A DNA stretch of 36,233 nucleotides from Elsinoe ampelina (Eukaryota). A model generated the notes under the pieces. That model made no database searches and was not told the origin of the DNA. It saw only the letters and a list, made by a program, of their open reading frames with translations. The translations under genes were made by a program, and so were the position numbers. The stretch spans positions 124,001-160,233 of the forward strand of contig ML992505.1 of NCBI GenBank assembly GCA_010093995.1, in the 5' to 3' direction. Positions within the stretch are counted from its first letter, which is position 1; each line of letters begins with the position of its first letter. Of the stretch, positions 13,585 through 21,900 are shown piece after piece.

Positions 13585-14507
13585 CTACTTCGAAGATGGA
13601 CCACCCAGCAGTTCCGCAAGGTTCGCAGACTTCCTCGTCACTCTCCTAGCAGTACCTCTGCCAGTATCTGGCTCTGGTTCTTTCCCTTCCTCCTCCCCTG
13701 CACCCTCCCCGCTGAGCCTCTTGCTCCTCCTGACTGATTCGGATCTGTCTACTCCACGACCACGACCTTTCCCGCGGCCCCTACCACGACCACGACTGCC
13801 GCGCGGACGACCTGTGGTGGGACGTATTTGACTTTCGCTTCGGTCATCCTTGCTGGAGGCTTCGGATTCTTCCTTGGTGTTGGTACCGGCAGTAGGCGGC
13901 GCAGGTATGGCAGGCGGGATAGCGTCGTCTTCGTGTCCACGGTCTGGCAGTTGGCCCTCACAAACGATACCGTCCATGACATCCACTGCTTCGCCTTCTG
14001 CTTCGCCTTGCCCACATCTTCTCCTGCTCCACCTTCCATCTCCTCAGCCGCAGCTTCTCCGGTACCCTGCAACAACGCCCCTGCTTCCTCAACCAAGATA
14101 CCACCTCCCACGTCCCCTTCCTGCAGACTACCCTCGGCATCCCTTCCAGCCTTGTTCCCAATCACACTCCCATCCTCCGTCCCCTGCACCCCCTTTCTCC
14201 CCTCCAAATCTCCCTCAGCATCCCCTCCACCCTTTCCCTCCCTCCCGGCCTCCCGATGCTGAAGATGTGAAATCCCCTCCCTCACAGTCTTATCCTTCAT
14301 CCACCCCTCATCAGGCATACCATACTCGTCCATAATAGCGAGGACGCCTTCTTGCCATCTTGGGGAGCCGCGTTGGATGTAGTGCGAGAGACCGAGGGCT
14401 TGGATCTGGGCGAGCGGGTCGGGGTGATAGGATTTGTTGCTTGGTGTGCTGGGGTGTGGGGAGTGGGGAGGAGAAGGGGGCGGGGAGGTCATGGGGGTGT
14501 CTTCCAT
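13585..14507 (-). CDS. Hypothetical low-complexity (Gly/Glu-rich, RG-repeat/AT-hook-like) protein, split by an apparent frameshift near 14010
   Basis: ATG 14507 follows a C/A-rich leader. The acidic Gly-rich frame (13749-14507) hands over to a second frame (..QGEAEGEAVDVMDG.., ending 13585) that carries 'GRPRGSRGRGRGRG' and 'RRSKR'. No convincing intron was found. Confidence 0.45.
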
Positions 14508-14864
14508 TGTGGCGTGGGTTTTGGAGAGGTTGTAGAGGTTGTGGAAGGAGGTGGTGTGGGTAGCGGAGGGAGGGGTGATGATTGGAGGATGTGAAAAGGA
14601 GGTAGGAAAGACGGAAGAGAAAAGTGGATGTGACAGGGAGGATTTGAGATGGATGTGGTTTCACACAATCACATGTCAGGGTGTGAGAGGAGGGAGAATG
14701 GTTCAACAAGATCGCATTACTCGTTGTTGCATCCCCGATTGCTGGAGCACTTCCTGATCGCAACCATAACAACGCCGCGAAGACATCAAGGAAAGTTCCG
14801 GCCGTATTCGTCGTAGGATGTGATATCATTTCAGCCGTGAAGGATTCGAATCATGGTGGCGGCT

Positions 14865-15240
14865 TCATATCGGTATGGCATTGCTGATAGCGGCGGAAGT
14901 GTCTGCCGGTGTGGAGAGCATTCTGAGAGTCGTCAGTGATGTTTCCAATGGACGGACAAGGCTCTTACTTTTTGCCAGTATCTGTTGCACAGCAACCGCA
15001 CAGAAGAGATGCTGGCCAGCATACGACCTGATGGAAGTTAGCAAGAATCGGTCGAAGCGGAACCCTTTCTCACCGCCAGTACCACAGCAGTGAAGAAGCC
15101 GATGGTTGGTCCAACTACCTGCAAGAATTCAGCACTGCCCTTGACATTATTGTGCTGGTAAGAAATACCTTGCAGTGGCAGGGATTTTGATCAGTCCCGC
15201 ACTGGAAGCAAACAATGGGCAAGGGGATGCAGTCGCACAT
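14865..15240 (-). CDS. Small Cys-rich putative membrane protein, 77 aa, 4 exons
   Basis: Exons 15240-15169, 15118-15074, 15027-14969 and 14922-14865. Three 46-50 nt GT-AG introns, with branch sites GCTAAC and CTGAC in introns 2 and 3. Product: MCDCIPLPIVCFQCGTDQNPCHCKVVGPTIGFFTAVVLAVVCWPASLLCGCCATDTGKKMLSTPADTSAAISNAIPI*. Confidence 0.82.
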
Positions 15241-15949
15241 GTTTTCGGTCACTGGGCTGATAGGATGTTGTCGATGGCGTAGGAGTGGACAGAATGAGAG
15301 GGTAGGGTTGTAGGACGTGGCCAATGTCCTGTATAAATGTCGACGAGCTACCACAGCTGGATACCTGATAGGATGACGTCGATCATACCTTCTCCCCGTC
15401 TCCACTTGGCGCCAATGAGGATCAATATGGTTCAGTCTGGGAGTATCGCAATCGTGGTTGATGATGGATGTATTGGGCTCTTTGTATGCATTTGGGATTA
15501 GCGTGATGAGAGATGAATGCAAATCGCTCTTGCCATTGCTATCAAGAATGAATACCAAAACGTCTATCCGGAATGCCGGTGGTCTGGGTGGATCCGTGCG
15601 AGGCGCAATGCGGCTCTTTTTAAGCTCGGCAGATCTGCCGTACCAATCTCCGCTTTTGGACCTTGAAATGTCTCTGAACTCCTGTTCGTGGCCGTGACCA
15701 CCTCACCTCTTCCAACTTAGAGCATTTCTCCTTGCTGACGATCACGGCTAGCTATTCAACCTCTTGTTCTGGAACTAGAGCATACTCCAGAATCGCGAAC
15801 CCTGGGGCCCCAGTACCATCGATACTAACCTACCCCTCCTGCGCTGCCTGCGTCACAACAATTCATCTCCGCAACACCTCCGCAACATGACTTCGAGCTG
15901 ACAACAACTTCAAAGCGCAGTAAAGGCGTAGGACGAGACGCGAAGAGAT

Positions 15950-18900
15950 ATGTCGGAACTCGTACAATGGTCTTCAGCAGCACGCAGCAGGCCCAGTCTT
16001 GAAGATGACATAATCTCTCCGAGGACAGTCACGCCCAAGTCGTCCTTTAACCGCAAGACCAGACCGACCCATTCGAGATCCAATCCGTCACTGAGATACT
16101 CCCCGACACGGAAGGAAGCTTTCAACGAGGACTACGAGCGGAGACCGTCACCGCTACGAACAGAATTCAAGGCCAATGCAGACCACGACCGCGCGTCCGA
16201 TGCAGAGGGTCGCACGCCCACTTCCGTCGTCGCTTCCAGTGCTGGATCTGTCAACAGCTTTCGTCTTCAAGATGCGCCAAAAGGAAGGAAGAAGCCAAGC
16301 GGCTACTTCGCCTTGCAAAAGACACTACCGGAGACCGCCGAGACAAGCAACGATCCGGAAGTGCCACAGCTGCAACTGAGAAGAACAGTCTCAAGCCTCT
16401 CCGGAACCCACACCCCTCCCGGTCGCAGGAGTGTACAATTTGCGAGACCAAACGAGAACGATGGCATTGATCCGCCATTCCGGACTCCTCTTACTCCAAA
16501 CAGCAGACCAGACGAGCTTGACGAGAGCGGCAATAGACAAGTCTCCCTCTTTGCCCGATTAAAGGCCCTTGCCTCTCCGACCTCATCCGCTACGCCACAT
16601 GGTCGACATGCCAGCGCTGGCGAATCATCTCTCGGCACACCTTTCATGACTCCGAACTCAGAAAGAGAAGAACCGAGATACCCAACGAGTTTGCAATATG
16701 GTAGCGAAGCTGAAGGCGATGTCGACGAGAGCTCCGGCGGTGAGGAGGCAGGCAGGAGCAGGAGTAAGCCGCGGCGACGCAAGAAGAGATGGCTAGACCC
16801 AGGCGGTTCCTCCACAGCTCCAACCACACCTCGGAATGGCCGATTTCCCTCTTTCTTGCGCGACTCTTCCAATACACCCCGGGAAGAGACAGAGGCACGT
16901 CCCGGAGGATTTGTACGAAGATCGACCATGAACGACATACCCGAAGACACTACACGAGCAGGATACTCCGAGGATGAAGGAAGAGATCGCATAGCAAAGC
17001 GGTGGAAGCGTGGCATTGAGGGCGCTCGTGGCCTCAGCTACTCGAATGCTGTCAGGCGTAGAGACAGGTCAGAGTCGCCAGAAGGCCGTCGACCCACAGC
17101 TTTTAGGAGACTCACAGCCTTTACTGCTTTCGACGGCAGCAGCTCGCCATTCCGGACCCGTGCTGAGCGGCCTGGTAGTCTCAGTGCACAGAAATGGCGC
17201 CAGGTCAAAGCCGGTCTCAAAATGTTGGGTCAAAAGAAGAAGGACGCCCGCATAAAGGTCGACTACGAGAAATCAGCCGAGCTCATGGCCGAGCTTTTGG
17301 CTGGGGCTCCTGCAGCTCTCTTCCTAGCAAGCATGTACCAGCGCGATGAGCATGGCAAAAAGAAGATCCCCGCCCTCCTTGAACAGCTCAAGGTCTCTAT
17401 TCCGAGCAGCTCGACAAGAGAGGACAAGGCTGGTGACCGCCATCTAGTGTTTACCGTCAACCTGGAGTATGGAAACGGTCCCTCAAGGATGACTTGGACC
17501 ATCCATCGATCATTACGAGACTTTGGCAACCTGCATCTCAAGTACAAGCTGCAAAGTCAGACAGAGCGCTACATTCAACTCAAAGGAGACGACCGTCATC
17601 GTGCAAAGATCCCTCGATTCCCTCGAAGCGCTTTTCCCTACCTTCGAGGCTTCCGCGGTCTCGGTGACGAAGATTTCGAAGATGAAGACCCGGCAGGCGA
17701 CCAGGGCGGTGCTACTGAGGGCGAGCAGTCCGGCGCCGAAATGCCCATGAGTGCAAAGAAAAGACGGCAGTCTTCCACAGTCGGCCGCAAGGCATCTTTC
17801 CACAGGCGCAAGCCTAGTTCGCTTGCCCTTGGCGAGAATGCCAACCAAGAAGGCGCTGATGGAGAGAACAAAGGTCCATACCCCGATCGGCAACGAAAGA
17901 AGCTGGAAATCTATCTTCAACAGATGATCAGATGGTTGATCTTCCGTCCCGACAGCACCAGACTTTGCAAATTCCTCGAGCTGTCTGCCCTGTCCATGCG
18001 CTTATCTGTCGAAGGTGGCTATCATGGCAAGGAGGGTCTGTTGTCCATCACTTCCAAGCGCGCTGTCGAACGTGGTGGTCTTCGGGCTTTCAAAGCCTTC
18101 CCAACCCGCCTGAAGTCCTTCCCTGACAGACACAAGCCTAAATGGTTTATGGTAAGGGACAGCTACATCGCAGCTGTCGACTCGCCAGAGTCCCTCATTC
18201 CCACCGAAGTCTTCCTGGTCGACTCTGACTTTTCCACTGACAACAGGATGAAGCGACTACGAGATCAGACTGCTCAAGAAATAGCAAAGACCGCGAAGGC
18301 GTCGGCACAGCCGCAACATCACCTGCTCAAAGTATTCAACGCGGAACGGAAGCTCCGTCTTCTTGCTCGGAACGAACGTCAACTCATACAATTCAAAGAG
18401 TCAATCGACTACATGAAGGAGAAGACTATCTGGGCTCGTAAGCAGCGCTTCGACAGCTTCGCGCCTGTGCGCAAGAATGTATTTGCCCGTTGGCTGGTTG
18501 ATGGAAGAGATCACATGTGGCAAGTCTCCCGAGCCATCGATAATGCTCGCAACTTTGTCTACATTCATGACTGGTGGTTGAGTCCCGAGCTCTATCTACG
18601 GCGACCTCCGGCGATCAGTCAACGCTGGCGACTAGACAGGTTGCTACTGGAGAAGGCACAGCAAGGCGTCAAAATCTTTGTCATCGTGTATCGCAACATC
18701 GAATCGGCTATACCCATCGATTCCGATCACACCAAAGCACATCTTCTCGAGCTTCACCCAAATATCTGCGTACAGCGGTCACCCAACCAGTTCCGACAGA
18801 ACCAATTCTTTTGGGCTCATCACGAGAAATTGGTTGTCGTTGACAATGCCATGGCTTTTGTTGGCGGTGTCGATCTATGCTTCGGTCGATGGGACGATCC

Positions 18901-21900
18901 TCATCACGTATTGACTGACGACAAGTTGACCGGCTTTGAATCAGACTTCCCTGGTGTGCGCAATTCGCACACGTGCCAATCGTGGCCTGGGAAAGATTAC
19001 TCTAACCCAAGGGTGCAGGACTTCTTTTCTCTCGACCAACCGTACGAAGAGATGTACGATCGGACCAGGGTACCTCGTATGCCTTGGCATGACATCGCCA
19101 TGTGCATTGTAGGACAGCCTGCTCGCGACGTTGCCCGGCACTTTGTCCAGCGATGGAACTACATTCTTCGTCAGCGGACTCCGTCGCGCCCAACACCAGT
19201 CCTGCTCCCACCTCCCGAATTCGAGCAAGAAGAGCTCGACAAGATGGGCATGTCTGGTACTTGTCAGATCCAAATCCTGAGATCGTGCAGTTCTTGGTCT
19301 ATAGGCACACCAAACAAGACCGAGTGCAGCATCATGAACGCCTACGACCACCTGATCCGCAGCTCGGACCACTTTGTCTATATCGAGAATCAGTTCTTCA
19401 TCTCCAGTTGCACGGTAGAAGGTACAAAGATTCACAACAAGATTGGGGACGCTCTTGTCGACCGCATCGAGCAAGCGTACGAGCAGGGAGACAAGTGGAG
19501 AGCCTGCATCATCATCCCTCTCATGCCTGGTTTCCAAAGCAGCGTCGATTCCCAGGACGGGACCAGTGTTCGCCTCATCATGCAATGCCAGTATCGAAGT
19601 ATCTGCAGAGGCGACAGCTCCATCTTTGGACGGTTGAAGGCCAAGGGTATCGATCCGACCGAGTACATCGACTTCTATGCACTTCGTCAGTGGGGCAAGA
19701 TTGGTCCCAACCAGAGTTTGACAACCGAGCAGCTATACATCCATGCCAAGTGCATGATTGTTGACGATCGTGCCTGCATCATTGGATCTGCAAATATCAA
19801 CGAGAGATCCATGCTCGGCAACAGAGATTCTGAAGTTGCGGCCCTGGTTATCGACCAGGAGACCATGCCTTCTCGAATGGGTGGCAAGCCTTATGATGTC
19901 GGCATCTTCCCGCACACTCTCCGTATGCGTCTCATGCGTGAGCATCTTGGCATTGATGTTGACGAGCACTACCACCAAGAAGGTGATGCGGCTTCGGACA
20001 GCTCGTCGGTCATGGATCCTATTCAGATTGTGCAGGAAAACTATACCACCCCACCCGCCTCTCCTAGAAAACTCACCGAGCAGAATCTGGCTGCCGATCA
20101 AAGCAAACAGCAACAGCAAACGCAGCAGGATCCACGACTTTCGGCTGATTCGCTTAGACAGTGGATCACGAAGACTGGTAACGACGCATCGAGTCATACA
20201 CAGGCATCAGAGCCTGATGCCAACAATGCCAGCAAAGGCAAGACGTATGGCGAGAAACTCGACCTCGATGTTGCCGGGTTCGGCTTTGACAACGCACGTC
20301 GCCTGAGCGATGCTGGGGTGACTGCTGGGAGAGAATCCTTTGTCAACACACATGGTCATGAGGTCCTTGCTGCGCCAGCGGATGCGTACGAGCCCAGGCG
20401 TAATTCATCAGTAGTCAGATCACATGGTGCAGCCGTCGCCGATACCAGCATGAGTCCGACTCCTCCGTGGAGCTTTCCACGCCAGACAACTCAACAACTC
20501 GGCCTCACCCAGCTCTCCCAGCTCCCGGCGTTGCCTGTTAGTGATGACACCGATATCGGCGGTCCCCCTGTCACAAGAAACATGTCGACTACATCTGCAA
20601 CCTTTATCAAACCTTTGCTGTCCTCTCTACGCAGACCCATCGTCGAGGATGACTGCATGCAAGATCCTCTCGTCGATTCCTTCTTCAAGGACATCTGGCA
20701 CCGCGTTGCAGAAAACAACACGAAGCTGTACCGGCAGGTATTCAGGTGCATGCCAGATTCGGAAGTACAATCTTGGAAGGAATATCGGGAATACAACGCA
20801 TACAGCGAGAAATTCATGCAAAGCCAAGGTTTAGGTCAGAGTAAGCCGAAACAGCCACCTGGTCCGCATGCCTCTGGGCCTCCGGGCAGCGCAGCGGGCA
20901 CCGAGAGTATCGCTAGTGATCGAGCAGACGGCGAGGCCAAGGCCTCCAAGAACAGATTGAGCGGATTCGCGAGCAAGATTTTACGCCCCACAAGCAATGC
21001 TTCGGAGCTGAACAAGCGGCAGAGCATGCCGGACATGAGCGAGAAGGGCAAGGGACAAAATCCTGGCAATGTGGACCTAAGTCAGCAACTCGCTCAAGTG
21101 GACGGTAACGGTGACTTGAACGAGAAGTCAAATGGTCTGGTGGCTCCTGACACCGCCACCACCACCACGAATACCACAGAGACGAACAACGGGCTTGCCC
21201 AACATGAGACGAACACGTTGACGGTGCCGGCCAGCCCCAATCCGGACAAGCACAGCTCGGCGGATCCTGAGAAAGCTAATGGCACTACTTTGCAAGCGAG
21301 AAGGTCACGCACCATCACCTTCAGCGCCTCAAACAACCACAACGATCCTAATGATGCGCCAGAGACGACAGCGACGCAGAGTGCTCCTAACAAGGAAGCC
21401 GAAGCCAAGCGAAGGAGGCGAGCAACGACTAGGAGCAGCATGAGACCGACTATTCTGCCGGAGGAAGTGCTGGAAAAGGAGGATGCAGAGCAACTGCTCA
21501 AGCTAGTGCAAGGTCACCTGGTGTTATGGCCGTACGAATGGTTAGTATCCGCTTCCGACGCATGGCCCCTTTGGACTGGCGCACACCGAGCCGTATTCGG
21601 GGTCTGGACGTGATCGAGGCTCCAGGCGTGTTCTGAGCGCCATTTCATCCATCCCCTATTGATTGGCTTTTGCTGGCGATCGCCCATTGATTTATTGTTT
21701 GCGGTATACTTGATTTCTTGCTTCTGACCCAGCACTTCCATCAATTGCACGCATAGAAGTGGAATATAGGCTGACTTGATGACAGGCTTGAGCGAGAAGA
21801 GAGAGGCGGGAATTGGCTGTACAACATTGATCAGATCGCACCTCTGGAAATCTAGTAAGTCTAGACTTTGCAAGAAGGACGCTCCTGCAAGAGCCCTGCT

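Follow-up and report, generated by a model that had tools for sequence, protein, structure and literature searches.

The minus strand at positions 14865–15240 of the window, which is the whole 36,233-nucleotide stretch of Elsinoe ampelina DNA analysed here, was originally predicted to hold a hidden four-exon gene for a small membrane protein resembling plant peptides. The locus therefore raises the questions of whether the gene is real, to which family its product belongs, how that family came to be shared with plants, and what the protein may do. The spliced product is 234 nt in length, i.e., 77 codons and a stop, and contains 10 Cys residues. Exon 1 (15169–15240, 72 nt) encodes residues 1–24, a Cys-rich N-terminal module (C11-x2-C14 ... 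C21-x-C23) predicted to form a β-hairpin; exon 2 (15074–15118, 45 nt) encodes residues 25–39, with the invariant G27-P28 and the first half of a hydrophobic helix; exon 3 (14969–15027, 59 nt) encodes residues 40–59, with the W43-P44 kink, a fungal Cys cluster (C49/C51/C52) and a basic G-K-K; and the coding part of exon 4 (14865–14922, 58 nt) encodes residues 59–77 and the stop, with an amphipathic helix, the invariant P64 and P76, and a hydrophobic-Pro-hydrophobic C-terminus. Intron 1 (15119–15168, 50 nt, phase 0), intron 2 (15028–15073, 46 nt, phase 0) and intron 3 (14923–14968, 46 nt, phase 2), all on the same strand, were delimited by joining of the exons and by spliced contigs. All three are GT..AG introns; introns 2 and 3 match the branch-point pattern used at a site 15 nt upstream of the acceptor, and intron 1 does not match it. 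A three-intron path of at least 70 aa was also found in 3 out of 30 shuffles of the region, so that in-phase splicing alone is weak evidence.

External evidence decided whether the gene is real. In the contigs of all four runs examined, which came from four studies and from a list of 11 runs, the three introns are skipped at the predicted junctions. That these runs are RNA is a guess, none being recorded as such, and the evidence consists of contigs rather than reads, carrying no expression level, condition or transcript ends. The spliced contig of run X1 (14713–15539) outlines a 5′ leader at 15241–15539, the true start of which it does not show, and the 3′ untranslated region at 14704–14864 is covered by spliced contigs of runs X1 (to 14713) and X2 (to 14704), again short of showing the end; both regions are on the minus strand. 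Run X6 represents a related organism, with substitutions but the same introns. Against all 13 fungal loci compared, pS was 0.75–0.95 (i.e., saturated) and pN 0.10–0.21. Splicing of the gene, its conservation and purifying selection on it are shown, and the spliced contigs, the pS/pN values and an identical deposited protein together bear out the predicted four exons, 77 aa and 10 Cys. Upstream of exon 1, the longer ORF that surrounds it offers no in-frame Met. In runs X2 and X8 a 5-nt deletion at 15388 shifts the frame of this ORF, which is accordingly not coding.

The deposited protein, identical over 77/77 residues (100%), is KAF2223975.1 (P0004), a hypothetical protein from Elsinoe ampelina, and the gene thus escapes an ORF track but had not escaped annotation. 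With exon 1 as the query, all 60 candidate proteins were returned, and identity to full-length Pezizomycotina members was 62–89%, e.g., those of Aplosporella (P0011) and Aureobasidium (P0018 and P0019). These deposited ascomycete hypothetical proteins share introns 2 and 3 with the Elsinoe gene, and no function is attached to them. The notion that annotation easily misses such genes fails for the Elsinoe gene itself, yet it holds for the family, since many relatives were deposited with wrong splicing, mostly from Penicillium and some from Aureobasidium, and a curated profile would repair such mis-spliced fungal models. The gene is single-copy, with no paralogue in its own 28.3-Mb genome by DNA or protein (3/3 candidates scored). 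The product names given to several members (polyol transporter 2, COP9 subunit 1, CWF19-like, OB-fold; P0080, P0088, P0065, P0007, P0026) have nothing to do with the family, and were probably inherited from gene models that had been fused. P0169 (661 aa) and P0276 (578 aa) have the appearance of such fusions, and the 3240-aa repeat protein P0163, found among the profile matches, was judged false and left out.

Of 3466 candidates, 285 proteins passed E ≤ 0.01 with a profile of 19 fungal sequences (best 120 of 285 listed), the same profile found 177 of 1.84 billion representatives at E ≤ 0.001 (best 150 of 177 listed), and a profile of distant members gave 217 matches among 2354 candidates (best 120 of 217 listed). 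Among the matches listed, ascomycete members came from Dothideomycetes, Eurotiomycetes, Leotiomycetes, Sordariomycetes, Lecanoromycetes and Saitoella; early-diverging fungi were represented by Caulochytrium, Geranomyces and Gonapodya, the last as a fused model; green algae by Chlamydomonas, Monoraphidium, Raphidocelis, Botryococcus and Coccomyxa; red algae by Pyropia; and streptophytes by Spirogloea, Closterium, mosses, liverworts, lycophytes, a fern, a conifer and many angiosperms. The records from chytrids and the red alga, taken as deposited, are single entries and may be contaminants. No oomycete, basidiomycete, budding-yeast or animal name was found among the matches listed (best 120 of 285, best 120 of 217, and 20 of 150 representatives named). 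Viral and prokaryotic collections gave no match to the core pattern in exact-pattern scans, which distant relatives could escape.

The original prediction pointed to a family of land-plant proteins of about 75 aa, and this match proved correct. An HMM built from 22 streptophyte sequences only scored the Elsinoe product at 77.6 bits (E 1.7e-16), while shuffled sequences scored at most 8.3 bits (1998 reported of 2000) and the reversed sequence −4.8, far below the real product, so that the cross-kingdom homology is not an effect of composition. HHalign of the fungal against the plant profile gave a probability of 99.8% (E 2.3e-29) over 76 columns, and the Elsinoe product is 41–45% identical to four streptophyte members. 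The family is therefore shared between plants and fungi as proposed, but this description is too narrow, as green algae, a red alga and chytrids carry it too. Pfam gave no significant family for the exon pieces, 11 fungal members or 52 members (best E 0.011, from single rows). The PDB, searched by sequence, yielded one chance match (E 0.59) and none with 125 rows, and the ESM Atlas held no more than three clusters, all unnamed, of which one was ascomycete and two were streptophyte. Three loci (L039, L042 and L065) are intronless members on contigs of 64–66% GC, of neither ascomycete nor streptophyte type and lacking the second Cys. In another, L063 (match from 3001 onward), the Cys cluster is interrupted by an in-frame stop and a number of substitutions are unusual; the modelled copy reads as either a pseudogene or an assembly error.

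Intron positions were compared in a metagenome scan, in which 80 of 168 confirmed loci were kept and 52 modelled, apparent duplicates being skipped to leave 47 distinct products; the spliced aligner recovered the structure of the Elsinoe gene itself as a control. The position of intron 2 recurs in 33/47 distinct modelled relatives and that of intron 3 in 31/47. Intron 1 was absent from all 47, and is probably a lineage-specific gain. All seven streptophyte-type loci are intronless. Three unnamed plant- or alga-like proteins (P0236, P0256 and P0268) contain, immediately behind the C-x-C-K motif, an insert in frame that runs from Val to Gln. It looks like a retained phase-0 intron at the place of intron 1, where parallel gain is likely because this is a typical insertion site. 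In run X6, two further and more divergent contigs (records 11 and 12) match the gene, and the divergent contigs of this run indicate that several related fungi in it carry the gene.

Three origins had been offered for a protein shared between a fungus and plants, i.e., an ancient family, horizontal transfer and host mimicry. Phylogenetic analysis of 67 rows, from which 9 unnamed environmental rows were left out and long N-terminal extensions trimmed, recovered Pezizomycotina as one clade (98/93), with the deep branches unsettled. Under a mixture model with 32 rows, Saitoella joined Pezizomycotina to make Ascomycota one clade (94/80), and because of this placement the gene most likely predates the ascomycete radiation. 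A grouping of Elsinoe with seed plants was rejected (p-AU 0.001). The one-residue insertion near the C-terminus is also informative, as the spacing from P64 to the terminal motif is 11 residues in 23/23 streptophytes and 10 in 37/37 fungi, 6/6 chlorophytes and the red alga; similarly, Glu-Trp-Pro occurs in 22/23 streptophytes and in none of the 37 fungi. Fungi thus share the algal state, and a land-plant donor is disfavoured unless both changes reverted.

These results bear most directly on the proposal that the protein was acquired from plants recently, as an effector-like copy of a plant peptide in a pathogen. The identical record does come from a plant-pathogenic species, and groupings of Ascomycota with seed plants (p-AU 0.078) or of Pezizomycotina with vascular plants (p-AU 0.13) were not rejected, nor was that of Pezizomycotina with all streptophytes (p-AU 0.32). 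However, the rejection of Elsinoe with seed plants, the single Pezizomycotina clade and the two streptophyte characters, missing from all 37 fungi, argue against it, as do the intron positions, two of which are common across Pezizomycotina while the streptophyte-type loci have no introns. The fungal members also include saprotrophs, lichen fungi, thermophiles and animal-associated fungi, and the gene is single-copy. Recent transfer or mimicry is accordingly considered extremely unlikely, and of the origins offered it is the ancient family that fits.

An ancient transfer from algae to fungi, or the reverse, before Ascomycota and perhaps before chytrids diverged, is possible, if doubtful. It would account for named matches listed being confined to Archaeplastida and Fungi, two distant supergroups, and for a cross-group identity of 41–49%, which is high for so deep a split; moreover, the two chytrid rows grouped neither with Ascomycota nor with each other in either tree. 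Yet monophyly of all fungi was not rejected (p-AU 0.40 and 0.215), and 77 columns are too few to resolve deep branches. The apparent range rests on the best 120 of 285 and the best 120 of 217 matches, and tiny multi-intron genes often go unannotated, so that gaps in the range may be artefacts. Deep eukaryotic inheritance with losses and ancient transfer between algae and fungi both remain compatible with the data, and the Elsinoe gene is best explained as an ascomycete member, inherited vertically, of an old eukaryotic family.

Alignment of 125 members showed that G27, P28, P44, P64 and P76 are invariant (125/125), that C11 (123/125) and C21 (124/125) are nearly so, and that every member ends in a hydrophobic-Pro-hydrophobic triplet. 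AlphaFold2 with 125 rows predicted a hairpin (11–14/23–26) and helices at residues 30–48 and 55–74, with a pLDDT of 74 and a pTM of only 0.52; with 52 rows the pLDDT was 66. The hydrophobic helix of the original prediction was recovered throughout, a 19-residue window of mean hydropathy ≥1.78 being present in all 76 aligned members examined for it. Residues 1–22 have a mean hydropathy of 0.1–0.4 across groups, and the hydrophobic stretch starts at residue 25. Basic residues (K+R) are more numerous behind the helix than ahead of it in all five groups (2.1 vs. 1.3 in Pezizomycotina, 4.1 vs. 2.3 in streptophytes), although Pezizomycotina show a weak bias in charge (0.45 vs. 0.33 net). The hydrophobic moment is 0.33–0.44 for residues 54–75, compared to 0.15–0.18 for residues 30–48. 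The first helix may either cross the membrane, with the N-terminus outside, or be re-entrant. In fold searches with both models, the matches were all to generic helices (best Z 3.9 and 4.2); the strongest (Z 4.2) had an rmsd of 4.9 over 61 aligned residues, with none at Z ≥ 5, and Foldseek gave no match at E ≤ 0.001; such absence of a fold match does not show a new fold.

The CGCC patch had been put forward as a site of palmitoylation. It is not a family-wide feature, since C49 is replaced by Val and C52 by Phe, each in 19/23 streptophytes; the cluster at 49–52 belongs to fungi and algae, land plants have mostly lost it, and its palmitoylation, if any, is therefore not the family core. The N-terminal Cys residues suggest another function, in which the C-x2-C ... 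C-x-C hairpin would be a membrane-tethered module that binds metal (Zn/Cu/Cd) or senses redox state and serves metal or oxidative homeostasis in the way of CYSTM-type peptides. Indeed, the four Cys are conserved from the red alga to fungi, with C14 and C23 both kept in 103/125 members, and the predicted hairpin sets C14 opposite C23, the strand register coming from the AlphaFold2 model. Against this, C14 or C23 is missing from 22/125 members, the replacement being nearly always Ile, Val, Phe, Leu or Met and not His or Asp, which a four-Cys metal site should not tolerate, and position 22 is Arg in 84/125. Covariation expected of a C14–C23 disulfide was sought as well and was not supportive, both residues being lost in only 2/125 members compared to 20 single losses. 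CYSTM peptides are small, Cys-rich, membrane-attached and stress-linked; their Cys cluster is C-terminal, whereas that of the Elsinoe protein is internal and followed by a 20-residue helix, and no CYSTM or zinc-finger Pfam profile matched any of 52 members. A metal or redox role is thus regarded as unlikely.

A loose likeness to TAXIMIN peptides had also been noted, which would make the protein a signalling peptide routed through the secretory pathway and active at the cell surface. In PMC4526920, TAXIMIN is described from land plants as a peptide of 73–75 aa with an N-terminal signal peptide and a mature form of 46 aa, with six conserved Cys, three conserved Pro and as many as 29 hydrophobic residues. 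The TAXIMINs TbTAX, At2g31090 and At2g20562 and the Elsinoe protein are alike in length, hydrophobicity, Cys richness, membrane location and the three Pro of the C-terminal half; the last 46 residues of the latter hold 3 Pro (the invariant P44, P64 and P76) and 27 hydrophobic residues, close to the TAXIMIN values, and the exact C-terminus is fixed across the family. Nevertheless, the same 46 residues hold 4 Cys instead of six, mostly lost in the land-plant members, and the N-terminus of the family is not signal-like, judged by the hydropathy of residues 1–22. No match named TAXIMIN was found among the matches listed in the exon 1, fungal-profile and distant-member searches, and the TAXIMIN motifs scanned for occurred in 0 of 370 retrieved proteins. 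The resemblance, compared by description only, was not upheld, and a TAXIMIN-like signalling role appears very unlikely.

Plant members are named in UniRef as ‘Little protein 1’ or ‘Cold-regulated protein,’ and that of Oryza meyeriana bears the former label. These labels lead to a small literature. ‘Little protein 1 (SALP1)’ is described as a plasma-membrane protein, possibly involved in osmoregulation, three linked copies of which are induced in drying Syntrichia (PMC8558194); ‘Little protein 1’ is drought-induced in Physcomitrella (PMC5054160); and OsSALP1 improves salt tolerance via OsP5CS and proline (PMC12819948, citing Yuan et al. 2016). The available parts of PMC11978549, PMC10669554 and PMC6267037 merely name the gene, with no SALP locus in the supplements of the last (12 of 31 files searched), and that of PMC9904508 was irrelevant to the family. 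The tie of the family to SALP1 and OsSALP1 is by label only, not by sequence. No paper on fungal or algal members was found in the literature searched, the coverage of which leaves out most subscription journals, and the idea of a relation to BLT14/WLT10 was dropped after the same search gave no link. The Elsinoe gene, although on deposit as hypothetical, adds a so far unstudied member to this labelled plant family.

Plant ‘Little protein 1’ and the Elsinoe protein are alike in the Cys hairpin, the G-P-T and W-P motifs, P64, the C-terminus and a length of about 75 aa. The plant protein alone has Glu for Cys42 and the insertion near the C-terminus; it also lacks the Cys cluster 49–52, has more basic residues after the helix, and is encoded by intronless loci, often in tandem copies, compared to the single-copy fungal gene. 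The tandem arrangement is suggested by neighbouring locus numbers among the plant matches (Beta, Cryptomeria, Dipteronia and Aquilegia).

The function tentatively favoured here, at a little short of an even chance, is that of a Pmp3-like, stress-related accessory protein of the plasma membrane, vertically inherited as a member of a SALP1-like family. The product would be a small plasma-membrane protein lacking a cleavable signal peptide and held in the membrane by one Pro-kinked hydrophobic helix (about residues 25–52), with a basic amphipathic C-terminal helix on the cytosolic face and, in fungi, additional anchoring by putative S-acylation of the Cys cluster at the helix end. An accessory-subunit role seems the most likely one because the protein has no catalytic or channel-sized domain. 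Through invariant surfaces formed by G27-P28-T29, W43-P44, P64, the terminal x-Pro-x and the C11/C21 hairpin, it may bind a conserved membrane partner or lipid domain, and under salt, drying or cold stress it could thereby tune the potential, ion leak or order of the membrane. Pmp3/RCI2 proteins are small hydrophobic plasma-membrane proteins of plants and fungi linked to salt and cold, and deletion in yeast hyperpolarises the membrane, as described in PMC4428271. The likeness is a functional analogy only, as Pmp3 has 55 aa compared to 77 aa, and the Pmp3/RCI2 Pfam profile matched none of 52 members at E ≤ 1 and none of 11 fungal members in a separate test. A Cys hairpin and a C-terminal amphipathic helix are not known from Pmp3.

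A bolder and quite unlikely reading is that the family was passed between early algae and early fungi and kept, over hundreds of millions of years, only in walled, turgor-bearing lineages, as a small regulatory subunit of a shared plasma-membrane machine, e.g., the proton pump or glucan synthase. If this were true, the single-copy fungal and algal members would make the partner directly findable. The Elsinoe gene itself is ordinary, being single-copy and on record, and its value lies in a family that has no Pfam model, structure or mechanism and whose plant members are tied to salt, drought and cold. Tandem copies hamper the plant genetics of the ‘little protein,’ whereas the harmless, haploid Aureobasidium pullulans, Aspergillus luchuensis, Penicillium roqueforti and Chlamydomonas reinhardtii carry members open to deletion and tagging, which makes the mechanism testable.

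The surroundings of the gene were also considered. A frame of 1893 codons (15932–21613, plus strand), which its motifs suggest is phospholipase D-like, is arranged head to head with the gene at a distance of about 690 nt. This arrangement recurs in 2 out of 28 fungal loci tested (L007 and L023), and functional coupling with the phospholipase D gene is not inferred because adjacency is limited to these. The 690-nt upstream region contains one STRE-type site, about the background rate of the window. A low-complexity gene with acidic and G/R-rich stretches (13585–14660, minus strand) begins about 200 nt behind the 3′ end; it had no match in related loci, and low-depth contigs cover part of it. 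The leader holds three short out-of-frame upstream ORFs, with ATGs at 15536, 15491 and 15386 and lengths of 12, 19 and 12 codons, respectively, for which translational control is possible. Strain differences, listed for runs X2 and X8, cluster in this leader of about 300 nt.
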